38,856 nt of DNA from an uncultured Rhodospirillaceae bacterium. Lineage in GTDB: Bacteria > Pseudomonadota > Alphaproteobacteria > Ferrovibrionales > Ferrovibrionaceae. Location: assembly GCA_964542505.1 (NCBI GenBank), contig CAZIVY010000249.1, positions 1-38,856 on the forward strand, in the 5' to 3' direction. Each line of letters starts with the position of its first letter. Position 1 is the first letter of the stretch. The notes beneath the pieces are model-generated. The model ran no database searches. It saw nothing but the letters and a program-made list of their open reading frames with translations, and had not been told where the DNA came from. Below, piece after piece: positions 6,644-37,931 of this stretch. Both the position numbers and the translations under genes were made by a program.

Positions 6644-7516
6644 TCAGGCGGCGCCGAGCTTTTCCATGTGGAAGTTGAACAGGCGATCCATTTCGCCGTT
6701 CACGACGACAAAGCTGGCCCACATGTCAAGAAACGCCTTCCACTCGGCGTCGCCGTAGCGGATCGCCCAGGTGTTGGGGCGCTTGTCGATGGGCTTCTCC
6801 GGTTCGACCACCGCGGCCCAGGTGTTGTTGCGCTTGGCGAACAGGATGACGTCGCTGTCGCCGCTCATCCACACATCGGCCTTCTTGGCGCGCACGGGTT
6901 CGGCGCCCAAGGTGACCTGGCCGGTGGTGGTGACGATCTTCGCCTTCGGCCACAAGAGGGGGATGCGCCCTTCTTCGCTGGCGCCGGCGGTTACCGAGAA
7001 GGTGACGTTGGGATCGTTGAAGTCGGCGGCGGTCTTGAAGCGGCCGGCATTGTCCTTGTGGATCAGGAGCAGGCTGCCCTTGGAGTAAAGCGGGCCGATA
7101 AAGTTGACCGTCAGCGCCCGCGCCATGGTGTAGGTCAGCGACGAGCCATAGAGGTCATAGTCGCCCTTGCGCAACGCCACGGTGGCGTTGGCGAAGGTGA
7201 CTTCCTTGTATTCCACCTTGATGTCGATTTCCTTGGCCAGGCGGTCCCCCACGTCCTTGTATATGCCGTGCAGATCGCCGGTCTTGGCATCCTTGTAGAA
7301 CCAGGGCCCGGTCTGGGAATAGCCGACGCGGACGATCCCGTCCTTGCGGACCTTGGCCAGGATAGAATCATCGCGCACGCCGGTTTCCAGAAGCTGCGCC
7401 ATGGATTGCCGTGGCGTCATGGCCGCGCCGGCGGCGGCGATCACGCCCCCGGCGGCGCCGAACGTCGCGGCGCCCTTCAAAAATTCGCGTTTGCTGGTTT
7501 TGATCTTGCCGTCCAT
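6644..7516 (-). CDS. ABC transporter substrate-binding protein (family 3, polar amino acid type), Tat/Sec-exported
   Basis: 290-aa ORF. N-terminal twin-arginine-like signal (KREFLKGAATFGAAGGVIAAAGAAM). SBP_bac_3-like body. It sits next to the cognate ATPase and permeases. Confidence 0.8.
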   Translation of the reverse strand: MDGKIKTSKREFLKGAATFGAAGGVIAAAGAAMTPRQSMAQLLETGVRDDSILAKVRKDGIVRVGYSQTGPWFYKDAKTGDLHGIYKDVGDRLAKEIDIKVEYKEVTFANATVALRKGDYDLYGSSLTYTMARALTVNFIGPLYSKGSLLLIHKDNAGRFKTAADFNDPNVTFSVTAGASEEGRIPLLWPKAKIVTTTGQVTLGAEPVRAKKADVWMSGDSDVILFAKRNNTWAAVVEPEKPIDKRPNTWAIRYGDAEWKAFLDMWASFVVVNGEMDRLFNFHMEKLGAA

Positions 7517-24175: not shown

Positions 24176-24322
24176 TAGAGGCGGTTTCCTTTGCCCGCCA
24201 CGATTCGCCGGATACCGCATAAATGCCTTATTTAGGCGACTCTTGCCGCCACGCCCCGACAGGCGTATCTTGCTCGCGTGGTTGCTAGGCGGTTGCTAGC
24301 AACCAAAGCGAAAGGAAACTGC

Positions 24323-25588
24323 ATGAGCGGAACGCGGCGGATCACCAAACGGCTTGTCGATGCCTTGCGGCCCGGCGAAATAGCGTGGGACAGCGACGTA
24401 AGAGGGTTCGGCGTTCGCCGGCAACGCAAGGCGAAGATTTACGTCCTCAAGACACGCATCGGCGGGCGGGCGCGGTGGTTCGCCATCGGCGAGCATGGTG
24501 CGCCCTGGACGCCGGAAATGGCTAGGCGCGAGACGCGGCGCATCCTTGGCGAAGTCGCCGCCGGGCGCGATCCGGCGAAAATCCGCGACGATAAACGCAC
24601 CGCCGGGACGGTGGCCGAGCTGTGCGACGCCTACATGGCCGCCGCCCCTTCGCGGGTGCTCAAGAAATCGGGGCGCCCCAAGAAGCCTTCCACCCTGGCA
24701 ACCGACAAGGGGCGCGTCGAGCGGCATATCAAGCCGCTGTTGGGGCGGTTGCAAGTTGGGGCCGTGACAACCGAGGACGTGCGGCGCTTCCTGGCCGACG
24801 TGGCGGCGGGCAAGACGGCGGCCGACGTGCGGACGGGACCACGGGGCCGCGCCATCGTCGAAGGTGGCGAGGGCACGGCAAGCCGCACCGTTGGGCTTCT
24901 CGGCGGCATCTTTTCCTTTTCGGTCGAAAAGGGCTTGCGCGCCGACAATCCGGTGCGCGGCGTGGCGCGGTTCAAGGACCGCGAAGCCGAGCGTTATCTG
25001 TCGGCTGGCGAACTGGCGCGCCTAGGGCAAGCCCTGGCGGCGGCCGAACGAGCTGGCGAGAATCCGATGGCGGTTGCCGGCGTTCGGCTGCTGATTTTCA
25101 CCGGCGCGCGCAAGTCGGAAATCATGACGGCGCGATGGGATTACGTTGACGGTGAGCATGGCTATCTGCGCTTGCCGGATTCGAAGTCAGGGAAGAAGCT
25201 CTTACCCTTGGGCGCGCCGGCCCTTGACGTGCTGGCGAAGCTCCCGCGCATCGAGGGCAATCCCTACATACTGCCGGGCGAGAAACCGGGGGCGCCCTAT
25301 ACCGGGTTGCCGAAGGCATGGGAGCGCATCCGAGCGCGCGCCAAGCTCGGGGATGCGCGGCTGCACGATTTGAGACATTCGTTCGCCTCGGTCGGCGCGG
25401 CTGCCGGCGACAGCCTGATTATCATCGGCGCGCTACTCGGCCACCGCGACGCCAAGACCACGGCGCGCTACGCGCACTTGAGCAACGATCCAATCAAGGC
25501 CGCGGCAAACCGCATCGCCGGCACCATTGCGGCCACGATGGCTGGCGGCGGCGGCGAGGTTGTGCCGCTGGCGCAACGGCACGGCTGA
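24323..25588 (+). CDS. int: P4-type tyrosine integrase (DUF4102 N-terminal domain plus phage-integrase catalytic domain)
   Basis: Starts at ATG 24323 (AAGGAA upstream): MSGTRRITKRLVDALRPGEIAWDSDVRGFGVRRQ.... The C-terminus has RLHDLRHSFAS...LLGHRDAKTTARYAHL (catalytic R, H-x-x-R, Y). Confidence 0.9.
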   Translation: MSGTRRITKRLVDALRPGEIAWDSDVRGFGVRRQRKAKIYVLKTRIGGRARWFAIGEHGAPWTPEMARRETRRILGEVAAGRDPAKIRDDKRTAGTVAELCDAYMAAAPSRVLKKSGRPKKPSTLATDKGRVERHIKPLLGRLQVGAVTTEDVRRFLADVAAGKTAADVRTGPRGRAIVEGGEGTASRTVGLLGGIFSFSVEKGLRADNPVRGVARFKDREAERYLSAGELARLGQALAAAERAGENPMAVAGVRLLIFTGARKSEIMTARWDYVDGEHGYLRLPDSKSGKKLLPLGAPALDVLAKLPRIEGNPYILPGEKPGAPYTGLPKAWERIRARAKLGDARLHDLRHSFASVGAAAGDSLIIIGALLGHRDAKTTARYAHLSNDPIKAAANRIAGTIAATMAGGGGEVVPLAQRHG

Positions 25589-26308: not shown

Positions 26309-26470
26309 CCGCCTGCCGCTCGCGGGCCGAAGGCGGCGAGGTTGTCTTGATGCCGAGGCGGGGGACGTAATCGAACCGGCGCGGCTAGGCCGACGGGCCG
26401 AACGCCGGGCACCGCACCCGGTTGCCGCGCCGACACTTCCTTGCGGATTCGCTCGCGTTGCGGAGGCGCC

Positions 26471-27100: not shown

Positions 27101-27355
27101 TTGCGATGGAGACGACGAGTGCAAACCGATCACCCGCCCACCCGGCAGTCTGCCGGCGAAGTTTTCCTGAACCAGTGCGTCACCGCCGTTTTGCTTGGGC
27201 TTAGCGAGCGAACGCTCGAAAGGTTTCGCTTGGAGGGCAGCGGCCCGGCCTTTCGGAAGTTTGGTAGGCGGGTGCTGTACGCGCGCGCCGACGTGCTCGC
27301 CTGGGCCGACGCGCAGCGGCGCACCAGCACAAGCGATCCCGGCGAGGCCGCCTGA
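27101..27355 (+). CDS. AlpA/MerR-like HTH_17 DNA-binding protein (excisionase/regulator type)
   Basis: The segment VLLGLSERTLERFRLEGSGPAFRKFGRRVLYARADVLAWADAQ matches the AlpA-like pattern. It lies directly upstream of, and overlaps, the ATPase gene. The start is uncertain (TTG 27101 or GTG 27119). Confidence 0.65.
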   Translation: MRWRRRVQTDHPPTRQSAGEVFLNQCVTAVLLGLSERTLERFRLEGSGPAFRKFGRRVLYARADVLAWADAQRRTSTSDPGEAA

Positions 27356-28644
27356 TGGCCGCCGAATCCGACGCGGCCGCAGGGTTGGCCGCCTTCGATA
27401 AATTTTGCGCGGAAGAAAATCGCCTGCGTCCCTTCACTCCGCTAACGCCAGCGCACCGGCCGCGCCAAGCCGAGGACCAGGAGATGGAAGCCGAGGCCGG
27501 CGGCGTCGAAATCATCCGCGCCGACTCCATCAAGGTGGTGGGTATCAGGTGGTTGTGGTCCGGCTGGCTCGCTGCCGGCAAGTTGCACCTGCTGGCCGGC
27601 CAGGCCGGCACCGGAAAGACGACTATCGCGGTGGCGTGGGCGGCGACGATATCACGCGGCGGCTCTTTCCCCGACGGCACCCGCTGCGAGGCGGGATCGA
27701 CGTTGATGTGGTCAGGCGAAGATGACGTGGCGGACTCGCTGGTGCCGCGCTTCATGGCCAACGGTGGGGACGCCAGTAAATTTCATCTCGTCGTTGGCGC
27801 ACGCGACGAAGAAGGCCGGCGGCGTCCGTTCGATCCGGCGACGGACGTTCCCGCCCTGACGGCGGGCGCAAGGGGCGTGCCCGATCTGCGGCTGGTGATC
27901 GTCGATCCGGTAGTGCTGGCGGTTGCCGGCGACAGCCACAAGAATGCGGAAGTCCGGCGTGGCCTTCAACCCCTTGTCGATCTGGCGGCGGCGCTTGGCG
28001 TGGCGGTGCTGGGCATCACCCACTACAGCAAGAACACTTCCGGGCGCGATCCGCTAGAGCGCGTCACCGGCTCCCTGGCGTTCGGCGCCCTGGCGCGCGT
28101 CGTCCTGGGCACGGCAAAGCCCGCCAAGGATGGCCCGCCGCGCCGCCTGGTCCGCGTGAAGTCGAATGTCGGCCCCGATGGCGGCGGCTTCGAATATGAG
28201 CTTGTGCAACACGCTCTACGAGGCGCCGGCGGCCTATTCGGCCAGGCTGTTGTCTGGGGCGACGCCCTGGAAGGTTCCGCCCGCGACTTGTTCGCCGAGA
28301 TCGAGGCGCGCGAAGGCGACGAAGCGCCGGCCAGATCCGGCGCCGAAAGCTGGCTGCGCGACAGGTTGGCCAGCGGGCCGATGGACTCGGTGAAAGTCAA
28401 GATGGACGCCGAGGGCGCCGGCCTGTCGTGGGCCACCGTCCGACGGGCGCAAAAGGCGCTGGGGGTTGTCACCACCAAGGACGGGATGGAGGGGGGCTGG
28501 CGGTGGCGCTTGCCGCCGAAGGTGCTCACCGCCGCCGAAGATGCTCACCACGAAGGGGTGAGCGCCTTCGGGAAATCCGCCATTTCTAGCCCGGCCTTGA
28601 GCACCTTCGAGAAAGACGATTCCGGCGACGTGGAGGAGTTCTGA
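27355..28644 (+). CDS. RepA-like AAA_25 / RecA-fold ATPase (island replication/helicase-loader type)
   Basis: 429-aa ORF with Walker A LLAGQAGTGKTT, Walker B LRLVIVDPV, and THYSKNTSGRDPLERVTGSLAF, all typical of AAA_25 proteins found beside AlpA in integrative islands. Confidence 0.78.
   Translation: MAAESDAAAGLAAFDKFCAEENRLRPFTPLTPAHRPRQAEDQEMEAEAGGVEIIRADSIKVVGIRWLWSGWLAAGKLHLLAGQAGTGKTTIAVAWAATISRGGSFPDGTRCEAGSTLMWSGEDDVADSLVPRFMANGGDASKFHLVVGARDEEGRRRPFDPATDVPALTAGARGVPDLRLVIVDPVVLAVAGDSHKNAEVRRGLQPLVDLAAALGVAVLGITHYSKNTSGRDPLERVTGSLAFGALARVVLGTAKPAKDGPPRRLVRVKSNVGPDGGGFEYELVQHALRGAGGLFGQAVVWGDALEGSARDLFAEIEAREGDEAPARSGAESWLRDRLASGPMDSVKVKMDAEGAGLSWATVRRAQKALGVVTTKDGMEGGWRWRLPPKVLTAAEDAHHEGVSAFGKSAISSPALSTFEKDDSGDVEEF
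28516..28571. repeat. iteron-like cluster 1: three copies of CCGAAG-NN-GCTCACC (two direct, one inverted)
   Basis: 28516-28530 ccgaaggtgctcacc; 28535-28549 ccgaagatgctcacc; 28557-28571 ggtgagcgccttcgg (reverse complement ccgaaggcgctcacc). Confidence 0.6.
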
Positions 28645-28645
28645 C

Positions 28646-29308
28646 ATGCCGGCGTCGGCGTTGCTGACCGATTTGACCCGAGCGGGTTTTACCATCCAGG
28701 CCGACGGCGGGCGGCTGGTAGTCGGCCCCGCAAGCAAACTGACGGACGAAACGCGCCAGGTCATCCGGCTGCACAAGGCCGAATTGCTGGCAGAGATAAC
28801 CGCCAGGGTGTCGTCACCGAAGCTGCTCACCGGGGCCGAAGATGCTCATCGAAATGGTGTGAGCGCCTTCGAGAAAAGCGAGCATCTTCGGGCGGAGCGC
28901 GACCGGTACGAGGAACGCACCGCCACCACCGAGTTGCGGGAGCCGCCGCACGCCAGCCCGCTGGCGCAATGGCGCGCCGGCATTGCCCGCCTGTCCCCCG
29001 CGTCGCCGCCTGTCGGCTTCACGCCCCGGCGGTGGGCCGAGGTGCTGGCCGACGCCAATCGCTTCCTGGCGCGATGGGGCGGGCAGGCCGAGGCTTTGGG
29101 CTGGGAGACGTTGGACTTGTTCGCCGTCGACCCGCGCGCCCCGGACGCCCGTTACGACAGCATGGGGCTGGTGGTGGTGTTGGACGGCAGCGAGGTGATC
29201 GCTATCGCGCCTGACCAGGCGAAGGTGCGTACCAGCACGGGCAAGGTGCAGACCTTCTACCTCAGCCCGCGCGTGGAGGCGGTGGCGGTCTGGGAGTTGG
29301 GACTGTGA
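28646..29308 (+). CDS. hypothetical protein with a TubC_N-like N-terminal module
   Basis: The N-terminus LLTDLTRAGFTIQADGGRLVVGPASKLTDETRQVIRLHKAELLAEI resembles the small docking-type domain common in island/plasmid replication modules. It starts 1 nt after the ATPase stop. Confidence 0.45.
   Translation: MPASALLTDLTRAGFTIQADGGRLVVGPASKLTDETRQVIRLHKAELLAEITARVSSPKLLTGAEDAHRNGVSAFEKSEHLRAERDRYEERTATTELREPPHASPLAQWRAGIARLSPASPPVGFTPRRWAEVLADANRFLARWGGQAEALGWETLDLFAVDPRAPDARYDSMGLVVVLDGSEVIAIAPDQAKVRTSTGKVQTFYLSPRVEAVAVWELGL
28817..28891. repeat. iteron-like cluster 2: four copies of the same 15-bp motif (two direct, two inverted)
   Basis: 28817-28831 ccgaagctgctcacc; 28836-28850 ccgaagatgctcatc; 28856-28871 ggtgtgagcgccttcg (inverted); 28878-28891 gcgagcatcttcgg (inverted). 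Confidence 0.6.
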
Positions 29309-29383: not shown

Positions 29384-31438
29384 CTAGTGTTCCTCTCCGA
29401 ATAGGCAAGTGCCCATGATCCGCGGGCCATCTGGGCTGCTTGCGGCAAAGAGCAGGAGAGGAACCTTTGGGTGCCAGGCGGGGTCCCATTCGTCGTCAAG
29501 TGAGGTCGTTATTTGGACTATGCTGGACGGCTGTTCTGTTCGGGTGACATAGACGTCCCAGTTGCCCTTCGCCTTCGACGCAAACGCAATCCAATTGCCA
29601 TCGGGAGACACAGCGGGGTCCCATTCGTCGGCAGGCGAGCCATAGAATAAATCTGGCAATTCCGAGCCGTGAGCAAGCCTGAAAATATCAAAGTTTCCGT
29701 TCTTGTTTGAGATGAAATAGACAGACTTGTCTGGCGCAATGGCGGGGCGCCACTCCTCCCATGGCGTGTCAGTCATCTTTGCGAGACGTTGGGTTGTCGA
29801 ATGCAGGCGATATAGATCAGGCGGCTGCCGCGAGGAGGTATTTGCGCCCGCAAATACAATCTCTTCTCCGGATACCGCAGGGATAGAGCCGCTTATGCCC
29901 TTGTCACCGAATAGCATCTCGCGGGTCGCGAACGATGGCCACTGCCGAGCCATCAGGCGCTCAATGCTTCTGGGATTTTGCTTGTCGAATCCCTGACCAA
30001 AGACAATTTCGAAAGTGTCGCTTGAGGATGAAAGGAACGCTGGGTGACGCTCGCTCGCTGTCACAACTTCTGGTGACAAGTCTATCACTTCGCGCCTCAC
30101 CGAATCGTATGCCCTTATTCGATCGCGACCACCCTTCCAAGTCTGGAAGAGCAACCATCTGCCATTGTCCGGCGAAAGACTCGGATACCGGCCTGATTCG
30201 GCAAGGAGCTGCCTAACAGGCGCCGATGCGACTTCCGTGGCTGCCAGTTTGCAACGCGAAGCCATATCAGGAGGGCTCAAGATGCCGGTTTCTATCGCCT
30301 TGGTCTGGAGCGTCGCTCCCAGCAGTGGCGCAAGATGCTCTGCAACAATATGGCCAATGGCCGTTGAGCCGCGATTGTTGAAATGAATATTGTCTTTTAA
30401 GAATGCCCACGATTTCGGCGCAGGCAGAGCCGCGTCGAGGTCGATCAGCACCGATTTTGTTTCAGCGGCAACACGCCTGATGGACTCATTGAATACGGCT
30501 TGCGGCTCGGATGCGACTCCAAGGGGTTGGGTCATGAGTGCTGGTTGCATGTCGTAGGCGCGGGCGATGCTCACAAATATCCGCAGGTTCCGCTCGAAGA
30601 GCAAGCGATGCTCGTCAAAGTTCGGGTCTGGAAAGTTAATATTTGACTCCCCTACAGAAACTCCAACTGTTTCGCCAGTCCATGCGTTGAATCTCGCGAC
30701 TGCATTACGCGCGAGAAATAAGATGTTACTTCGATAGGACACGTAATCCCACGAGGAATGCATCAGGCCGCGAGCTGACGCGAATACTGCAGCGCTAGAC
30801 ACGGGGGGGTCGGTTCCAAGACGTCCGGTATAGTTGCCCTGAATGGCAAGGCGCAGGCGGTCATTGATGTTTTCCATCAGCACAGCGACGGACGCATCAA
30901 GTAATCCCGGCCGGTTGAGCAACGCGTTGATGTTGTCCTGCGTAGTGTGGCCGCGAACCCCGGCATTGAGGGTCCGGACGCGGACGCCTGCGGAATTGAG
31001 GGCAGACCCTACAACTGCCGGAAACCGGAACGCCTCATCGACCTCATTTGACTCCGTTGTAGATCCGCCAAGGAAGAGAATCTTTGTCGCTGCATCGGAA
31101 TCATTGTTGGATTTGATGTATCCCAGATCATCAGTTCGAAACATCCTTGGCGCATGCCGCGAGAGCGTGCCAGCCGCATCACGGTCTCCGGGCAGAAACT
31201 CGTGTCGGATCGACGGGGCAAGGTTCAATGTCGTTGTGCGGAAGTATGCCGCTTCTTCTCGGAATTTGCGCGATTCCTCGCGGATAATTCCGGTTTCCCC
31301 AATCCGGCCAGCAGCGAAATCGAGTGTTACGAACGCCGTCGCGAGAATAGCCAGGATTGCCAAGGAGCCTAGAATTCTAATTCTATTAGATGCCACACTT
31401 GCACGCCTAGCCCACTCGTTTCTCATGTTGCGCGCCAA
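29384..31438 (-). CDS. membrane-anchored SGNH/GDSL-type hydrolase fused to a TolB-like (PD40/WD40-like) beta-propeller; fifth gene of the hxs operon
   Basis: 684-aa ORF with one N-terminal TM (ILGSLAILAILATAFVTL). SGNH blocks: ILFLGGSTTE (block I Ser), ENIND (block III), DNIHFN (block V D-x-x-H). The C-terminal repeats SLSPDNGRWLLF, PAIAPDKSVYFISNKNGNFDIFRL, PAVSPDGNWIAFASKAKGNWDVYV and DEWDPAWHP are typical of TolB-type propellers. It starts 8 nt after the hxsC stop. Confidence 0.7.
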   Translation of the reverse strand: MARNMRNEWARRASVASNRIRILGSLAILAILATAFVTLDFAAGRIGETGIIREESRKFREEAAYFRTTTLNLAPSIRHEFLPGDRDAAGTLSRHAPRMFRTDDLGYIKSNNDSDAATKILFLGGSTTESNEVDEAFRFPAVVGSALNSAGVRVRTLNAGVRGHTTQDNINALLNRPGLLDASVAVLMENINDRLRLAIQGNYTGRLGTDPPVSSAAVFASARGLMHSSWDYVSYRSNILFLARNAVARFNAWTGETVGVSVGESNINFPDPNFDEHRLLFERNLRIFVSIARAYDMQPALMTQPLGVASEPQAVFNESIRRVAAETKSVLIDLDAALPAPKSWAFLKDNIHFNNRGSTAIGHIVAEHLAPLLGATLQTKAIETGILSPPDMASRCKLAATEVASAPVRQLLAESGRYPSLSPDNGRWLLFQTWKGGRDRIRAYDSVRREVIDLSPEVVTASERHPAFLSSSSDTFEIVFGQGFDKQNPRSIERLMARQWPSFATREMLFGDKGISGSIPAVSGEEIVFAGANTSSRQPPDLYRLHSTTQRLAKMTDTPWEEWRPAIAPDKSVYFISNKNGNFDIFRLAHGSELPDLFYGSPADEWDPAVSPDGNWIAFASKAKGNWDVYVTRTEQPSSIVQITTSLDDEWDPAWHPKVPLLLFAASSPDGPRIMGTCLFGEEH

Positions 31439-31446
31439 TTGGCAGA

Positions 31447-32667
31447 TCAGTTCGCGGCAGCGCTTACGAAAGGCCGAATATGCGAACTATAACGCACCTT
31501 TGCAGACGAGAAAAACCCGCCGCAGTTTTCCCTCTCAGCGCAACCGGCGCACTCAGGCATGTGTTCGTTTTTCCAATCGCTTATCGAGCGCCGCGCAAAG
31601 GTCCACAAACGGCGATCGAGCACACAAAGTTGATGATTGTAAATTGACACATGGAGATGATGATCGGCCAGCGTTGTAGCAGCCCTGTATAGTTCGCGCT
31701 GATAGTCGAAGGGATCAATCCAGAGGTCTGGGAGATTTGCTTTTGTGAATCCCATCATCTCCAAACCCATAAGCGCCACGTGATCCACGAAAATCAGATT
31801 GCGTGCGATGAAATCAGCCAGTTGCGGAAGCCGTTCATAGGTCTGCTTGTGAACGACTACGCGTATTTCGACCTTCTGTCGATGGCGCTTTAGATTGAGG
31901 ATGCCTCGAATAGTCTCGTCATACGCTCCATCCGCCTGGACAACGTAGTCGTGGACGGTCGAAAGATCGGAATAGAGCGGGATTCCCATCATCAAGTCCG
32001 GGTGCTCGACGCTCGCGACCTTTTTGGCCAAGCTCGCATCTGAGAAATTGCGGCCATTGGAAAGTACGTGAACCGCCGTATTAGGCAGGTAGTTCTTTGC
32101 GAGCCGCAGGAGATCAATAAAACGGTCGCCGAGCAATGTCGGTTCGCCGCCTGTGAATCCAATCTCGCGGGTCGCGGGATCAATAAGCGGAATTGCTTCC
32201 GAAATTTCGTCAACAATCCACGAATCCTGTACATCTCGCGGCGGCTGCGAACACATAAGGCAATACGAATTACAGCGCTCCGTCACAAGAAAACTGTTGT
32301 GTGGCGAGTTGCGACGATAGAGGACACGAATTGTTCCGTCCCTCTGATCGAATCCTAAAACGTCACCGTCGCCAAGGTACTGGTAATCATCAGGCAATAC
32401 GACTGCCGAAGCTCCTTCTGGCGGTGTACCTACAAAGCCCGAGTTACGAAGATAGACATAGAGAGAGAATCCATCCGGTGCGACACCACTGTTGACCAAG
32501 AACGCTTCTCGCGCTTTGAGCGGAGCCGGCCGGAGCGGGTTTGTTGTCAGTCGGACAACGAATCGGCCACGGTCCGTTGGCACATTGAGGAATTCAAGCC
32601 CGCCGCTGCGCAGTTTCAGCATGCTACCGCCTAACCCAGCCAAGGAAGACGCGGCGCACTTCTTCAT
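31447..32667 (-). CDS. hxsC: His-Xaa-Ser system radical SAM maturase (HxsC-type)
   Basis: 406-aa ORF with the radical SAM motif ERCNSYCLMC (CX3CX2C) and a C-terminal Cys cluster PECAGCAERENCGG. It lies in an operon with the HxS-repeat precursor. The start is uncertain: 32667 overlaps hxsB by 44 nt, while the alternative ATG at 32622 lies 1 nt after the hxsB stop. Confidence 0.78.
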   Translation of the reverse strand: MKKCAASSLAGLGGSMLKLRSGGLEFLNVPTDRGRFVVRLTTNPLRPAPLKAREAFLVNSGVAPDGFSLYVYLRNSGFVGTPPEGASAVVLPDDYQYLGDGDVLGFDQRDGTIRVLYRRNSPHNSFLVTERCNSYCLMCSQPPRDVQDSWIVDEISEAIPLIDPATREIGFTGGEPTLLGDRFIDLLRLAKNYLPNTAVHVLSNGRNFSDASLAKKVASVEHPDLMMGIPLYSDLSTVHDYVVQADGAYDETIRGILNLKRHRQKVEIRVVVHKQTYERLPQLADFIARNLIFVDHVALMGLEMMGFTKANLPDLWIDPFDYQRELYRAATTLADHHLHVSIYNHQLCVLDRRLWTFARRSISDWKNEHMPECAGCAERENCGGFFSSAKVRYSSHIRPFVSAAAN

Positions 32668-34117
32668 CCTGCCGCATCAGCGTGATTAGGTGCCGGAAGA
32701 TTGCCATGTTCCGATTGCAAAAGTCCGACAGCGGCTTACGGCCAACGAAGTCGCCCCAAGTGGCGTGGTGGAACACAGGATCGGCACCACAATATGGTTC
32801 GAACGCGCACTCGGAGCACATTGGCGCCGACCCCGCGAAAGACGCTTCTAGCGGATCGAGCAGTGCATCAGACAGGAAGATGGATTCGTAGCTGTCCGAG
32901 TGGACATTGCCAAGGCGAAACGTCTTATCGCCCATTTCTGCCAACATTCGGCCTTCGTCTGCTGCATACACGTCGCCATCGTAGTTGTAAACAACTGCAG
33001 CGATGCCGATCCCGGACGGACTCGTTAAATCGACGTAGCCCGCATCGAAGGGCGTCAGCATCTTAGTTAGGATCGTGGCGGCATAGTGCTCCGGGAAGAA
33101 GTACCCGCCGCGATTCAATTCGATTATGTAATTGAGTCCCTCCTTGTAGAAGCGCAGCCACTTTTCCGCGTCATACGCCGCATGCATCTTCGTCTTGATG
33201 GCGAAGCCATACGGCGAGAGTGGCCGCAAAAAGATGCCTTCTAGCCCCTGTGCCACGTACTCATCGATTATTTCGCGGACACGATCCAAACTACGCGCCG
33301 TCGTAGTCATGAGTGCACCTACTCGATCACGCCCAAGCATGGCGCGCGCTCGGTTGATGCCGGCAATCGTTCGGTCGTAACTATCGCCGCCGGGCCGTGG
33401 GCGGTTCTTGTTGTGCAAATCGCGCGGACCATCCAGCGATGTCGATATAAGGATGTTGTGCTCACGGCAAAACGAAAGAATTTCATTCGTGATAAGCGCG
33501 AGGTTCGATGTGATGACAAATTCCAGGGCGCGTTTCGCCGTCTCGTTTACGCGCTTCGCCTCTATGACGACGTGTCGGATCAAGTCGAAATTTAGTAATG
33601 GCTCGCCGCCTTGGAATTCGATCTTGAGGTGTGGCGATGGTGAACGAAACACGAGCTCCAATGCCTTGTCCGCAGTCTCGAGTGTCATATCGAAAGCGAC
33701 CTTATCGCTGCTTCGTCGCGATACTTGGCAGTAGCCGCACGAATGTTCGCATCGCAATGAAACAACGAACATGTGCAAGCCAGTGAAGTCCGCTAACCGC
33801 TTTAGCTTCGTCCTGACTTTCAGCGCCAAGAGATCGGCCGCAATGTCTGAGTCGCCATCTGTGAGAAAGTGCTTCGCCTTCAAGTCGCCGAACCATGCAG
33901 AGGACGTCGGCAACTGATGGCGAACGAATGAGGCAAGGGTGGTTCTATCTAGGACGACAAACTCACCGGCCTGATTGGTGGCGACGTAATCGTTTTCATC
34001 GAGTCGTGTGAACCGGAAGGGCAGAAGCTTGTAGCCGTCAGCTAGCGGAGCTTCGAAATGGTCCAGCGAGAGAAATCTACCGGTCATCTCCCTGGAGACC
34101 TGTCCTAGAGAAGGCAT
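32624..34117 (-). CDS. hxsB: His-Xaa-Ser system radical SAM/SPASM maturase (HxsB-type)
   Basis: 497-aa ORF with the radical SAM motif LRCEHSCGYC (CX3CX2C) and a C-terminal SPASM-like cluster APMCSECAFEPYCGADP...FCNRN. The B-versus-C naming rests on size and SPASM content recalled from the TIGRFAM definitions. Alternative start at 34087. Confidence 0.78.
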   Translation of the reverse strand: MPSLGQVSREMTGRFLSLDHFEAPLADGYKLLPFRFTRLDENDYVATNQAGEFVVLDRTTLASFVRHQLPTSSAWFGDLKAKHFLTDGDSDIAADLLALKVRTKLKRLADFTGLHMFVVSLRCEHSCGYCQVSRRSSDKVAFDMTLETADKALELVFRSPSPHLKIEFQGGEPLLNFDLIRHVVIEAKRVNETAKRALEFVITSNLALITNEILSFCREHNILISTSLDGPRDLHNKNRPRPGGDSYDRTIAGINRARAMLGRDRVGALMTTTARSLDRVREIIDEYVAQGLEGIFLRPLSPYGFAIKTKMHAAYDAEKWLRFYKEGLNYIIELNRGGYFFPEHYAATILTKMLTPFDAGYVDLTSPSGIGIAAVVYNYDGDVYAADEGRMLAEMGDKTFRLGNVHSDSYESIFLSDALLDPLEASFAGSAPMCSECAFEPYCGADPVFHHATWGDFVGRKPLSDFCNRNMAIFRHLITLMRQDEEVRRVFLGWVRR

Positions 34118-34415
34118 AGGCTAAGATGGCGTTACGCGCAGCCTCGGTTTCTCGCGCAACAGTGCGCCGCAAGTCCTGGTCTAGTACTTCATTGCGAAAC
34201 TCGTTGACAACGCGCTCAACCGTTTCCGCATCCTTGCCCGGAAGAACTGTGACGGTACAAGAAATTTCGGCGTCCGATATGGAGAAGTCGAACGCCGCAA
34301 GATTGGTCAACCGATAGGCAGCTTTTTTTACCGTTTCGAGGTCGTAGACCTTTGTCGAAAACGAAACTATTGCAGAAGCTCCTGCGACGGCCCGCCCATC
34401 GGCCACGTTCGTCAC
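34077..34415 (-). CDS. hxsD: His-Xaa-Ser system protein HxsD-type (small accessory protein)
   Basis: 112-aa ORF between the precursor and the maturases. The GTG start overlaps the hxsA stop (GTGA). The C-terminal NEVLDQDLRRTVARETEAARNAILAYAFS resembles what I recall of HxsD. Confidence 0.65.
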   Translation of the reverse strand: MTNVADGRAVAGASAIVSFSTKVYDLETVKKAAYRLTNLAAFDFSISDAEISCTVTVLPGKDAETVERVVNEFRNEVLDQDLRRTVARETEAARNAILAYAFSRTGLQGDDR

Positions 34416-34690
34416 TGACTGGACGAATAGTGCGAATAGTGGCTTGAGTGCGACTGATGCGACTGATGCGACATATGCGAACGGTGGTACGTGGTTTGGA
34501 TCGGCGACCCGTCGCTCCGTTCCAAGACGAATTCATCAACCAATTGTCCGTTCCCAGTTAAGGCCGACTCCGCTTGTACCGCCTGTGTCGTCTCGGGAAT
34601 CACTGATGCGCTGGACGTTCCCAACGCAAGCGACAAGAGCGCTGCCACCGAAACCGCCAATGGTGAAAGAAATGGACGCTTCTTACCCAC
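34412..34690 (-). CDS. hxsA: His-Xaa-Ser repeat precursor protein (HxsA-type) with an N-terminal signal peptide
   Basis: 92 aa. MGKKRPFLSPLAVSVAALLSLALGTSSASV is a Sec-type signal. The C-terminus is Y-HRS-HMS-HQS-HQS-HSS-HYS-HYS-SSQ. GTG start at 34690 with AGGAGG 6 nt upstream. Confidence 0.85.
   Translation of the reverse strand: MGKKRPFLSPLAVSVAALLSLALGTSSASVIPETTQAVQAESALTGNGQLVDEFVLERSDGSPIQTTYHRSHMSHQSHQSHSSHYSHYSSSQ
34424..34486 (-). repeat. seven tandem 9-nt (His-Xaa-Ser) coding repeats
   Basis: Codon-by-codon reading of the minus strand gives CAC/CAT-NNN-TCG/AGC x7. On the plus strand this appears as cga-nnn-gtg/atg periodicity (e.g. gactgatgc gactgatgc gacatatgc). Confidence 0.85.
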
Positions 34691-34735
34691 GTCGTTCCTC
34701 CTTTTTCACTTGCTTCCTGAGCACGGTTTTCAAGT

Positions 34736-35470
34736 ATGTACTATATTGATGAGTCAAACAAGCAAGAGGCTCAATTGCACCGACTACATAGGCCGCAAGT
34801 CCTAGTAGGCCCGTTCTTGATACTCGCATTGGCGAGCTTCTTGACGCTCCCTGCAACGAATGTTCTTGCTCACGGTGGTGGCCTTGACGGCCTAGGTTGC
34901 CACCACGACCGGAAGGTCGGCGGCTACCATTGCCACCGAGGCGCGTTGGCCGGCCAGTCCTTCGCCTCCAAAGTCGAAGCCGAGCGGGCACTCCGAGGCG
35001 CACGAGAAGCGCCGCCGCAAGCGATGCCAGCCCCAACTCGACCGGCGCCGGCAACAGCCGAGATCGCGGGCCAGGCCTCCGTGATTGATGGCGATACCAT
35101 TGAAATCCACGGCCGGCGCATCCGCCTGCACGGAATCGACGCCCCCGAGAGCGGGCAGGACTGCAAGGCTGGCGGCCAGACCTATCGGTGCGGCCAGAAG
35201 GCTGCCGTGGCGTTGGCGGACAAGATTGGGCGCCAGACCGTCAGTTGCGACCAGCGCGACACCGACAGGTATGGCCGGGCCGTAGCAGTGTGCAGGATCG
35301 GGGCGGAAGACCTAAGCGCATGGCTGGCGCTCGAAGGCTGGGCGCTCGCCTACCGGGAATACTCAAGAGATTACATTTGGGCCGAGGATGCGGCGAAGAA
35401 AGCCGGGAAGGGGGTATGGGCCGGCGAGTTCGAGGCGCCGTGGGACTGGCGAAAGAAGAAACAGCGATGA
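34736..35470 (+). CDS. secreted thermonuclease (SNase-like) with an N-terminal His/Cys-rich YHYH-like motif
   Basis: ASVIDGDTIEIHGRRIRLHGIDAPE...DRYGRAVAVC...EGWALAYREY are staphylococcal-nuclease-family motifs. Upstream lie HGGGLDGLGCHHDRKVGGYHCH and a hydrophobic signal (VLVGPFLILALASFLTLPATNVLA). The likely true start is TTG 34775, with AAGAGG 5 nt upstream. Confidence 0.78.
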   Translation: MYYIDESNKQEAQLHRLHRPQVLVGPFLILALASFLTLPATNVLAHGGGLDGLGCHHDRKVGGYHCHRGALAGQSFASKVEAERALRGAREAPPQAMPAPTRPAPATAEIAGQASVIDGDTIEIHGRRIRLHGIDAPESGQDCKAGGQTYRCGQKAAVALADKIGRQTVSCDQRDTDRYGRAVAVCRIGAEDLSAWLALEGWALAYREYSRDYIWAEDAAKKAGKGVWAGEFEAPWDWRKKKQR

Positions 35471-36071: not shown

Positions 36072-36992
36072 ATGCGCATCAACCTCGTAGTCGCCGTCAC
36101 CGATGATGATTGGTTCGAGATGCTTCGTCGGCATCCGAACCTCAGCGAGGTCAACTTCTGGGCACCTTCAGCGGCGAATTTCCGCGCGCTCCAGCCCGGC
36201 GAGATGTTTCTGTTCAAGCTACATGCGCCCCGCAATGTGATCGTTGGCGGCGGGATATTCGCCCATGCCAATGTGCTGCCCTGCTCCCTCGCCTGGGCAG
36301 CGTTCGGCGAAGCGAACGGCGCGCGTTCGGCGCAGGAGATGCGTGTGCGCATTGGCCGTTATCGCAGAACCGGTGAGAGCGACCGGGGCGACTTTGCGAT
36401 CGGTTGCCGCATCCTGACCCAGCCCTTCTTCTTCGAGGAACCCGATTGGATTCCCGTGCCGCCAGGCTGGTCACCGAACATCGTATCTTTCAAGACCTAC
36501 AACACAGGCAATGCTGACGGTTTTGATCTGTGGGAAGCGGTCAACGATCGCCTGAACCGGCACCTCGGTCCGGGGATGCCCGAGGCCAGCGAGCGATTTG
36601 GAGAGCCGCACCTTATCCGGCCCCGGCTCGGACAAGGCGCATTCCGCGTGCTGGTTACAGACATCTACCTTCGGCGCTGCGCGGTCACGCAGGAGCGGAC
36701 GCTGCCAGCTCTCGAAGCGGCGCATATCCGTCCGTATAGCGATGGTGGTGAGCACGAGGCTCGGAATGGGCTCTTGCTACGGCGCGATATTCATAGCCTG
36801 TTCGACGCCGGCTATGTGACGGTTACGCCCGACCTTCGCTTCGAGGTTAGCCGGCGGATTCGGGAAGAGTTTGAGAACGGCAAACACTATTACGCCCTTC
36901 ACGGTCAACGAATCAGCGCGCCGGCGGAAATCGGCCAACGTCCTGATCCAAACGCCCTGACCTGGCACAACGATCATTGTTTTAGGGGATGA
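36072..36992 (+). CDS. HNH endonuclease (HNH_2/PF13391-like) with a PUA/EVE-like N-terminal domain
   Basis: The C-terminal LGQGAFRVLVTDIYLRRCAVTQERTLPALEAAHIRPYSDGGEHEARNGLLLRRDIHSLFDAGYV is the PF13391-type HNH signature. The N-terminal 180 aa (FWAPSAANFRALQPGEMFLFKLHAPRNVIVGGGIF) looks PUA-like. That domain call is inference. Confidence 0.78.
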   Translation: MRINLVVAVTDDDWFEMLRRHPNLSEVNFWAPSAANFRALQPGEMFLFKLHAPRNVIVGGGIFAHANVLPCSLAWAAFGEANGARSAQEMRVRIGRYRRTGESDRGDFAIGCRILTQPFFFEEPDWIPVPPGWSPNIVSFKTYNTGNADGFDLWEAVNDRLNRHLGPGMPEASERFGEPHLIRPRLGQGAFRVLVTDIYLRRCAVTQERTLPALEAAHIRPYSDGGEHEARNGLLLRRDIHSLFDAGYVTVTPDLRFEVSRRIREEFENGKHYYALHGQRISAPAEIGQRPDPNALTWHNDHCFRG

Positions 36993-36995
36993 TCG

Positions 36996-37931
36996 GTGGC
37001 GCCTATGACAGATGGCGACCGGGACGCCTTGATGCGCATGGCGGCCGTCGAGCATGTGCGAAGGTTGGGCGAGGTTCACGATCACCTGACCGCCACCGAG
37101 TTGAAGCCCGGCTTCTATTTCGAGGGTGAGCGAATACCGCTCATCAATCCACAGCGCGGCATCTTCAAGCCAAAGCAGATGCGGTTCTTGCTTTCGATCA
37201 GGACCGTCTTTCCGAAGCCGGGCGGCAAGGTCTGGTATGACGATCAGCGCGAGGTGCATCGCCAGATTTTTGAGGGCGACGAGTCGATCGACTACGCCTT
37301 TATGGGCAAGGACCCCGATGCCGCTGATAACCGCTGGCTTCGCGAGGCGTTTGAGAAGCGGATACCGATCATCTATTTCCTCGGAATTGCGCCGGGCCGC
37401 TACCAAGCCATGCTTCCGGCCTTCATTTCCGGGTGGGACGCCAAGGCGTTAATGGCGCGGGTCGCGTTCGGAGTGCCCGGTCAAGAGGCGCTGGCGCCGC
37501 CCGAGAATGCCTTGGAACGGCGTTACGCCCTGCGCGCAGTCAAGCAACGGCTGCATCAGGCGTCGTTCCGCGAAGCCGTCATCACCGCCTATAATGGCCG
37601 TTGCGCGCTGTCGGGCCTGCCTGAGCCGATGCTGTTGGACGCCGCCCACATCGTTGCGGACACGGACGAGCGGCTCGGACAGCCAGTGGTGCCCAACGGC
37701 ATCCCATTGTCGAAAATCCATCACGCCGCCTTCGATGCCCACCTGATCGGCATCGACCCTGACTATCGGCTGCATGTGTCCGAGCGGCTGCTCGGGCGGA
37801 ATGATGGCCCGATGCTCGAAGCCCTGAAACAGTTGAAGGGCGGAACCATCCATTTGCCGAACCGCCCCAAGGACTGTCCGGATCGAGACCGGCTCGCCTT
37901 GCGCTTCGAGCGCTTCAAGGCGGCGGCGTGA
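36996..37931 (+). CDS. HNH endonuclease (HNH_2/PF13391-like) with a different, SRA-like N-terminal domain
   Basis: The C-terminal FREAVITAYNGRCALSGLPEPMLLDAAHIVADTDERLGQPVVPNGIPLSKIHHAAFDAHLIGI is a second PF13391-type HNH. The N-terminus (RGIFKPKQM...SIRTVFPKPGGKVWYDDQ...IPIIYFLGIAPGRY) is unrelated to that of the upstream gene. It starts 3 nt after the upstream stop. Confidence 0.78.
   Translation: MAPMTDGDRDALMRMAAVEHVRRLGEVHDHLTATELKPGFYFEGERIPLINPQRGIFKPKQMRFLLSIRTVFPKPGGKVWYDDQREVHRQIFEGDESIDYAFMGKDPDAADNRWLREAFEKRIPIIYFLGIAPGRYQAMLPAFISGWDAKALMARVAFGVPGQEALAPPENALERRYALRAVKQRLHQASFREAVITAYNGRCALSGLPEPMLLDAAHIVADTDERLGQPVVPNGIPLSKIHHAAFDAHLIGIDPDYRLHVSERLLGRNDGPMLEALKQLKGGTIHLPNRPKDCPDRDRLALRFERFKAAA

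Follow-up and report, generated by a model that had tools for sequence, protein, structure and literature searches.

A 92-codon open reading frame (ORF) on contig CAZIVY010000249.1 of an uncultured Rhodospirillaceae bacterium (assembly GCA_964542505.1) most plausibly encodes the precursor, and effector, of a short-form His-Xaa-Ser (HXS) system with the gene order hxsA-hxsD-hxsB-hxsC. We analysed the full 38,856-nt stretch of this contig, hereafter the window, and put the probability of this reading, together with the mechanism proposed below, at roughly 0.75. The ORF is assigned to the HXS system because its adjacent genes pass the cut-offs for HxsD, HxsB and HxsC, and the narrower claim that its product of 92 amino acids (aa) is the substrate of HxsBCD is one we consider close to certain. 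An earlier sequence-only reading of the window, made without database searches, had called the ORF an HxsA precursor and was right in substance, as the three maturation proteins pass their cut-offs and the best matches of the peptide are HxsA models. What it overlooked is that this is a short form, devoid of a peptidoglycan-binding domain and set in a gene order unlike that of the studied system.

The precursor gene adjoins radical SAM maturase genes

Three minus-strand genes follow the precursor gene, all called at the curated cut-offs of NCBIfam models: hxsD (34077..34415; TIGR03976, 60.3 bits against a cut-off of 50), hxsB, encoding a radical S-adenosylmethionine (SAM)/SPASM maturase (32624..34117; TIGR03978, 630 bits against 370, a full-length match), and hxsC, encoding a further radical SAM maturase (31447..32667; TIGR03977, 406.5 bits against 267.9). 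The hxsC ORF overlaps the end of hxsB, and the resulting order in the window is hxsA-hxsD-hxsB-hxsC. Both HxsB and HxsC retain a CxxxCxxC motif (CEHSCGYC at residue 123 and CNSYCLMC at residue 132, respectively) plus a C-terminal Cys cluster, in HxsB at residues 434, 437, 443 and 467. With known HXS systems the locus thus shares passing HxsB, HxsC and HxsD models and an operon-encoded effector with tandem HxS repeats; a canonical TIGR03979 score, a peptidoglycan-binding domain and the order D-B-C-A are absent from it.

Features of classical ribosomally synthesized and post-translationally modified peptide (RiPP) pathways were sought in the operon and its flanking genes, among which neither a leader protease nor an ABC exporter was found; nor does the precursor appear to carry a non-Sec leader, its N-terminus being signal-peptide-like. 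The AlphaFold 2 model of HxsD (mean predicted local distance difference test score 87.6) comprises a strand-helix-strand-strand unit followed by two long helices. It returned no match in the PDB with E < 0.01, the best being ferredoxin-like and Pcc1-like folds at template-modelling scores of 0.4-0.48. HxsD as a PqqD-like recognition element was dropped on account of this confident model without a significant PDB match, and no PqqD-like RiPP recognition element was seen in HxsD, the one partner whose model was inspected. The Pfam family PF27806 (HxsD) was found in HxsD homologues. A scan with PADLOC v2, whose set contains no HXS model, gave just weak matches to viperin-type radical SAM proteins, and a megablast search of the operon region against plasmids returned no match.

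The precursor ends in seven His-Xaa-Ser triplets

Translation of the ORF (34412..34690, minus strand) yields MGKKRPFLSPLAVSVAALLSLALGTSSASVIPETTQAVQAESALTGNGQLVDEFVLERSDGSPIQTTYHRSHMSHQSHQSHSSHYSHYSSSQ, followed by a TGA stop. The GTG start codon (34688-34690) lies in the register in which homologues begin with M-KKR-x-FL, and direct reading reveals a Shine-Dalgarno sequence, AGGAGG (34697..34702, minus strand), 6 nt ahead of it. At the other end, the TGA stop overlaps the GTG start of hxsD as GTGA. A scan for promoters and terminators near hxsA found nothing exceeding shuffled expectation.

Sequence and repeat analysis placed an array of seven unbroken H-x-S triplets at residues 69-89 (34424..34486, minus strand), with R, M, Q, Q, S, Y and Y as the variable residues and SSQ and the stop codon directly behind. 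Here the sequence-only reading proved accurate throughout: its HRS-HMS-HQS-HQS-HSS-HYS-HYS followed by SSQ-stop is exact, on what is the minus strand (left unstated there), the AGGAGG that it saw ahead of the GTG start is present, and its imperfect 9-nt repeats were recovered by Tandem Repeats Finder as period-9 repeats at 34424-34441 and 34449-34480. Pairwise identity among the seven 9-mers of the array is only 60%. Both CAC and CAT serve as His codons in the array, and one of the invariant Ser codons is AGC, the rest being TCG. An unbroken run of seven HxS triplets within 92 aa is not explicable by chance; homologues show the pattern again.

Two segments around the array deserve mention. The hydrophobic motif FVLERS (codons 54-59; 34514..34531, minus strand), 15 residues before the first His of the array and conserved according to motif counts in homologues, is probably a candidate recognition element for the maturases. 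S-H-Y-S-S (codons 86-90; 34421..34435, minus strand) is, by motif comparison, the counterpart of the SHRSS motif of Escherichia coli HxsA, and we infer its modification in the window protein from the +8 Da site of that protein. Among NCBIfam models, the 92-aa protein best matches HxsA2 (NF038296; 34.8 bits), with residues 3-87 aligned to positions 2-95 of the 96-position profile. Against Pfam it has no match at all: the peptidoglycan-binding domain is absent and the protein ends 3 residues past the array.

Short-form HxsA proteins form a large family

A BLASTP search of a protein collection returned 18 homologues of 82-107 aa that are at most 47% identical to the window protein. Their alignment reads M-KKR-x-FL-x-PLA..SVAALL, a variable linker, FVL-x-RS, four to at least eight HxS repeats, and an SHYSS tail. 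The His and Ser residues of the repeats are invariant, as is the SHYSS tail, whereas the X residues and the number of repeats vary. In all seven metagenome contexts examined, the gene order is A-D-B-C, sometimes with a small extra ORF between D and B, and related loci sit amid resolvase, integrase, ThsB-TIR and restriction-type genes.

Scanning species-representative genomes for HxsB revealed 545 relatives, the best of them 72% identical to HxsB of the window. Locus analysis covered the best 80 (57-72% identical), whose record titles name Alpha-, Beta- and Gammaproteobacteria, Acidobacteriota, Nitrospirota, Methylacidiphilaceae, Spartobacteria, Myxococcota, Eremiobacterota, Melainabacteria, Dehalococcoidia and Flavobacteriales. 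Of these 80 loci, 75 have a short ORF that ends in an HxS array and shares the strand of hxsB, nearly always directly upstream of it. Two short hxsA genes, for the most part in tandem, occur in about ten related loci (L028, L034, L036, L039, L044, L049, L053, L064, L076 and L086); often one of the two is Gly/Ala-rich at X and the other Arg-rich.

Family statistics were drawn from 85-86 short HxsA sequences (homologues from L012-L091), whose median length, 92 aa, is that of the window protein. The 86 arrays have 5-9 repeats, most commonly 6, with X mostly S, A, R, Y or G. A hydrophobic motif lies 14-16 residues ahead of the first His in 67/85 proteins, and S-H-x-S-[S/G] closes 82/85. Several Mesorhizobium proteins (L025, L026, L027, L030, L032, L037 and L005) end in SHCSGYSYC, with two Cys, rather than in SHYSS, a tail variant that might be cross-linked differently. 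TCN and AGY codons are mixed at the invariant Ser positions in 26/86 arrays, pointing to selection at the amino-acid level and not to slippage during replication. The sequence-only reading had likewise favoured selection on the H..S spacing over slippage, and the alignment that it proposed as a check bears this out, since His and Ser are invariant, X and repeat number vary, and the repeat region is conserved.

A profile search of 1.84 billion cluster representatives gave 1,851 matches (clusters at 50% identity) at E ≤ 0.001 and 264 at E ≤ 1e-10. Of the 150 best matches, 145 are at most 113 aa long, end at the array and are matched over nearly the whole profile. Short-form HxsA is a real and large family.

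These comparative data refute the notion that the ORF is not a gene and merely a low-complexity repeat left open by chance in a GC-rich genome, to which we attach next to no weight. It might be entertained given that a gene caller skipped the slot on a sequencing-run contig with identical overlapping genes, that the exact protein is absent from a collection of 15 billion proteins, and that ORFs overlap it on the opposite strand. However, the strong Shine-Dalgarno sequence and the start in register with homologues, the overlap of the stop with the hxsD start, the conservation of the full-length architecture over many phyla in the same operon position, and amino acids conserved across varying codons all speak against it.

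As the invariant parts of the array are His and Ser, the family points to modification chemistry or His-based binding rather than charge. The matured peptide could be a periplasmic or secreted metal binder, such as a His-rich Ni/Zn/Cu chaperone or a metallophore-like RiPP, made by an operon for metal handling. Seven His among 21 array residues, the invariance of His and Ser alone with basic residues dispensable, the missing peptidoglycan anchor and a divergent neighbour with a His/Cys-rich YHYH domain would all suit such a role. We nevertheless judge it improbable: neither here nor in the related loci examined for gene content does the operon have a metal transporter or regulator next to it, and the surroundings are mobile or defence-type islands. 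Moreover, HxsB, HxsC and HxsD share equivalog models with proteins of the E. coli defence system, and simple binding of metals by His requires neither invariant Ser nor radical SAM chemistry.

A signal-like N-terminus is conserved

Codons 1-28 (34607..34690, minus strand) are predicted to encode a signal peptide, MGKKRPFLSPLAVSVAALLSLALGTSSA followed by SV, which contains K-R-x-F-L-x-P. We assessed it by motif counts and a heuristic analysis of n-, h- and c-regions with ORFs of the window as controls, the cleavage site given being the predicted one. The heuristic found an n-region of charge +3 (K3, K4 and R5), a hydrophobic core from L11 to L23 and small-x-small sites that include SSA28/SV; it detected neither a lipobox Cys nor a twin Arg in this N-terminus. 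Under a stricter version, a single one of the window's 161 ORFs with 80 aa or more passes; HxsA does, and HxsB, HxsC, HxsD and the cytoplasmic enzymes tested fail. Since this version misses the window's two solute-binding proteins, which have long N-termini as longest ORFs, it is conservative. By the same heuristic, every homologue examined has a tripartite N-terminus, as do HxsA of Klebsiella and Aeromonas. The window protein is very probably exported.

As to the route, the consensus of the twin-arginine translocation (Tat) pathway is S/T-R-R-x-F-L-K. Window HxsA, with K-K-R-P-F-L-S, does not carry this substrate motif. Across the family, KRxFL, KKxFL or RRxFL is found in 40/85 proteins and a Pro two residues after FL in 66/85. 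The resulting K-R-x-F-L-x-P resembles the Tat consensus minus its twin arginine and is conserved far beyond generic Sec n-region needs; a Tat-like route, or a role of the motif in recognition by the maturases, is possible. Codons 3-7 of hxsA (34670-34684, minus strand) carry part of it. A KR-type Tat-like motif also occurs at the N-terminus of the window's SBP_bac_3 protein (6644-7516, minus strand), ...TSKREFLKGAATFGAAGG.

That conservation invites the idea of non-classical export, through a degenerate Tat signal after modification in the cytoplasm or by an uncleaved inner-membrane anchor that replaces the peptidoglycan anchor. Modifying before exporting suits the logic of Tat, and in E. coli the N-terminal processing of HxsA depended on HxsBCD and was not simple removal of a signal peptide (PMC13128918). 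Several features make this unlikely, however: a twin arginine is present in just 2/85 short HxsA proteins, the h-region is strongly hydrophobic in the manner typical of Sec (10-residue Kyte-Doolittle mean of 2.36 in the window protein, family median 2.2), every member has small-x-small sites behind the core, and at ~13 residues the core is on the short side for stable anchoring in the membrane. Given the strong hydrophobicity of the core and the near absence of RR, we retain Sec as the most likely route for the window protein.

Of the Sec-type leader with an SSA/SV site put forward by the sequence-only reading, the signal-like tripartite N-terminus holds and is conserved in homologues; the Sec route itself is only likely. 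The pairing of an export signal with cytoplasmic radical SAM maturases, described there as unusual, is not new for the family, because Li et al. 2026 (PMC13128918) had already demonstrated a signal peptide on E. coli HxsA.

A proposed mechanism by analogy with the E. coli system

PMC9062424 and, in its Discussion, PMC13128918 credit the in silico definition of the His-Xaa-Ser system to Haft and Basu 2011. The E. coli HXS operon was identified as an anti-phage system that prevents the DNA of phages from entering (Li et al., Nat Commun 2026, PMC13128918), restricting 110 of 113 phages; its HxsA undergoes maturation by the radical SAM enzymes and has its site of action in the periplasm. According to the same study, the signal peptide of HxsA is needed for periplasmic localisation and defence, its replacement abolishing the latter; HxsB, HxsC and HxsD are all needed for HxsA to be processed at its N-terminus; and a +8 Da modification was located in SHRSS, within the last repeat. 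Residues 23-47 and each of the HxS repeats were required, and mutating the peptidoglycan-binding region likewise abolished defence. Residues 23-47 are the region that matches the FVLERS region of the window protein.

On this model, the 92-aa pre-peptide would be translated from its GTG codon, with hxsD probably coupled translationally through the GTGA overlap. In the cytoplasm, HxsC with HxsD, plus the SPASM-type radical SAM enzyme HxsB, would act on the C-terminal H-x-S array; the likeliest modification site would be S86-H87-Y88-S89-S90, and FVLERS, upstream of the array, would probably aid recognition. The signal peptide would then direct export over the inner membrane, Sec being the likeliest route; cleavage would occur near SSA28/SV, possibly with further N-terminal trimming, leaving a small, modified His/Ser-rich peptide in the periplasm. 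Lacking a peptidoglycan-binding domain, the effector would have to work as a free peptide in the periplasm or through other partners. By analogy with E. coli HXS, the periplasmic peptide may hinder the entry of phage DNA and so protect the cell. Array modification, export route, cleavage site and anti-phage function are all inferred from homology, and we rate an anti-phage function of the window operon slightly better than an even bet.

A number of observations weigh against this reading. The window protein falls below every curated HxsA cut-off (NF038296, 34.8 against 48 bits; HxsA4, 27.3 against 55; TIGR03979, 21 against 121.65), and it has no peptidoglycan-binding domain, which is essential for defence in E. 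coli. Its A-D-B-C order differs from the D-B-C-A order of 99.6% of the systems in the census of PMC13128918. With no PqqD-like fold seen in HxsD, the recognition step is left without a structural precedent here. The literature that we found holds no experiments on short forms, and PMC13128918 never mentions short forms or HxsA2; a search for other papers about them came up empty. Lastly, Lys and Arg are both missing from 32 of the 85 family arrays. Binding of DNA by the HxS array through basic residues was considered and judged weak for this reason, and also given the single Arg in the window array and a predicted mature part (residues 29-92) in which K/R minus D/E amounts to -4. The basic-poor array and the missing anchor make it harder to carry the E. 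coli model over as it stands.

The operon lies in a putative mobile or defence island

Ordinary metabolic and transport genes occupy 1-23 kb of the window. Beyond them follow a phage-type integrase gene (24278-25588), an int-alpA RNA (26378-26446; Rfam RF02996, 47.5 bits) and the gene of an AAA_25 protein (27355-28644). The GC content then drops from ~65% to ~54% over 30-35 kb, a segment that spans most of a gene for a 684-aa protein, the hxs operon and the start of a nuclease gene. Further on, two tandem paralogous HNH_2 endonuclease genes (36072-36992 and 36996-37931, plus strand; 306 and 311 aa; PADLOC HNH model PDLC04132) may constitute another defence module of the region. Integrase, int-alpA RNA, low-GC segment and HNH nucleases together suggest that the hxs region is an integrated mobile or defence island; the window contains no tRNA gene, and no attachment-site repeats were identified in it. 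The end of the AAA_25 gene and the following 220-aa ORF harbour the two copies of a 60-nt direct repeat (28516-28575 and 28817-28876), which are 83% identical and 301 nt apart.

Both immediate neighbours of the operon encode proteins with an N-terminal hydrophobic segment. The 684-aa protein combines an SGNH/GDSL domain with a PD40 (TolB-like) beta-propeller (29384..31438, minus strand; PF13472, PF07676); its gene begins 9 nt past the hxsC stop and lies where the low-GC segment ends on the left. Homologues of 640-690 aa are encoded 1 nt past hxsC in an Oxalobacteraceae metagenome-assembled genome (L041, 8186-10117) and, 40 bp from hxsA and divergent from it, in a Rhodospirillaceae genome (L020, 3283-5364). 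A GDSL lipase upstream of hxsA in L003/L004 was considered as a relative of the 684-aa protein and set aside as coincidence, there being no similarity at E < 1e-5. On the other side, 45 bp from hxsA and divergent from it, lies the gene of an SNase-type nuclease with a YHYH domain (34736..35470, plus strand; PF00565, NF033223). SNase genes with signal-like N-termini adjoin hxs genes in L014 (4590-5303), L058 (8613-9311) and L062 (9118-9801), the one in L014 occupying the same divergent position as in the window and encoding a protein 55% identical.

Such associations are a minority, with the SGNH-propeller gene in 3 and the SNase gene in 4 of 81 loci, the window included. Both neighbours might be cargo of a mobile element. 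Alternatively, the SGNH/PD40 protein may be an accessory of some short-form HXS operons, and a periplasmic nuclease next to a blocker of DNA entry could be a functional partner.

Short hxsA genes are poorly captured by annotation

The HxsA2 model recognises a Pseudomonas member at 102 bits and a Cupriavidus member at 88, and the layout of window HxsA matches that of members passing its cut-off (L073 and L057). Of ten other relatives, eight reach just 27-42 bits, under the cut-off of 48. The window protein is placed in a wider, mostly unnamed part of the HxsA2 family.

Gene annotation has fared no better. On the Mesorhizobium plasmid pWSM4875, whose HxsB is 64.5% identical, both HxsA and HxsD have counterparts entered as "hypothetical protein", with HxsA annotated at 61 aa (L005, 4389-4703). 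Exact look-ups of window HxsA, HxsB and HxsC in the 15-billion-protein collection found nothing. Only the exact HxsD of the window turned up, on a contig of 2.6 kb that stems from a public sequencing run; the hxsA slot was left uncalled on a public sequencing-run contig that carries exact copies of the window's HxsD and SNase genes (L011, 1476-1797). The HxsA2 model thus misses much of its own family, and short hxsA genes often go unannotated or are not called as genes, making short-form HxsA an example of a widespread, under-annotated small gene.

What a short-form effector could reveal

The sole experimental model of HXS defence features a peptidoglycan-anchored, Arg-rich effector in D-B-C-A operons that are almost confined to Pseudomonadota, to which the census of PMC13128918 assigns 99.7% of HXS systems. 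The layout in the window differs, in that the effector is pared down to signal peptide, recognition motif and HxS array, and it recurs across phyla. Short-form HxsA calls two elements of the published model into question, namely anchoring and charge, and offers a direct test of whether either is needed to block DNA entry. It is also a minimal natural substrate for working out the +8 Da chemistry.

More tentatively, and with considerable doubt, the short form could be a mechanistically distinct and far more widespread sub-type of HXS. Its effector would be a free, radical SAM-modified periplasmic His/Ser peptide of ~35-64 residues that dispenses with anchor and basic residues, KRxFLxP would be a family-specific signal for export or maturation, and some loci would add exported partners. 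If this is true, the SNase partner could destroy phage DNA stalled at entry, and the second partner would be the membrane-anchored SGNH/TolB-like propeller protein.

Comparison with known systems

A distant parallel lies in sulfatase maturation. AtsB and the anaerobic sulfatase-maturating enzymes (anSMEs) are cytoplasmic SPASM-type radical SAM enzymes that modify a Ser-containing motif of signal-bearing sulfatases before or during export. HxsB is distantly similar to anSME models. The likeness is an analogy only: sulfatases acquire one formylglycine in a folded enzyme, whereas HXS involves a repeat array on a small peptide, two radical SAM enzymes and HxsD.

The HXS systems of E. coli and Klebsiella (TIGR03976-03979) share with the window two radical SAM enzymes and an HxsD under the same equivalog models, as well as an effector made up of a signal peptide, a hydrophobic motif ahead of the array (DLVIAPL in Klebsiella, FVLERS in the window), tandem HxS repeats and a final S-H-x-S-S. 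Identity between the HxsB proteins of Klebsiella and the window is only ~33%, and Klebsiella hxsA follows hxsC (D-B-C-A) whereas hxsA of the window precedes hxsD (A-D-B-C). The effectors differ as well. Klebsiella HxsA, at 211 aa, consists of a signal peptide, ...DLVIAPLNTEVPFYIAG-HRSHSSHRSHSSHRSS, a Ser-rich linker and a C-terminal domain, and the window protein matches just the N-terminal module of it. At 92 aa against 211-214 aa in E. coli and Klebsiella, the window effector lacks both the Ser-rich linker and the C-terminal peptidoglycan-binding domain, and its array has seven repeats with one Arg, compared with five repeats and three Arg.

The same A-D-B-C order is found in Leptospira phage LnoZ_CZ214 (LE1-like; KF114877), whose record contains a complete short-form hxsA-D-B-C operon (L092, 2793-6102). 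Its 99-aa protein is annotated as HxsA, and its HxsB is 46% identical to that of the window. In contrast to the window protein, the phage HxsA has an Arg-rich array (HRSHSSHRSHSSHRSS) that is not C-terminal, since a tail of 16 residues comes after it. The presence of the complete operon in a phage record implies that the short-form system also travels on phage or prophage genomes.

Closest in layout is HxsA2 (NF038296; Pseudomonas and Cupriavidus), with which the window protein shares the length class (a 96-position profile), an end-to-end alignment, a signal peptide, an FVLKR-like motif, a C-terminal HxS array and a position upstream of hxsD-B-C, although its score of 34.8 bits stays short of the 48-bit cut-off. 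Judged by these sequence comparisons, the window feature belongs, as a divergent and sub-threshold member, to the short-form (HxsA2-like) branch of an already known system that has since been characterised experimentally, and is not a new kind of element.

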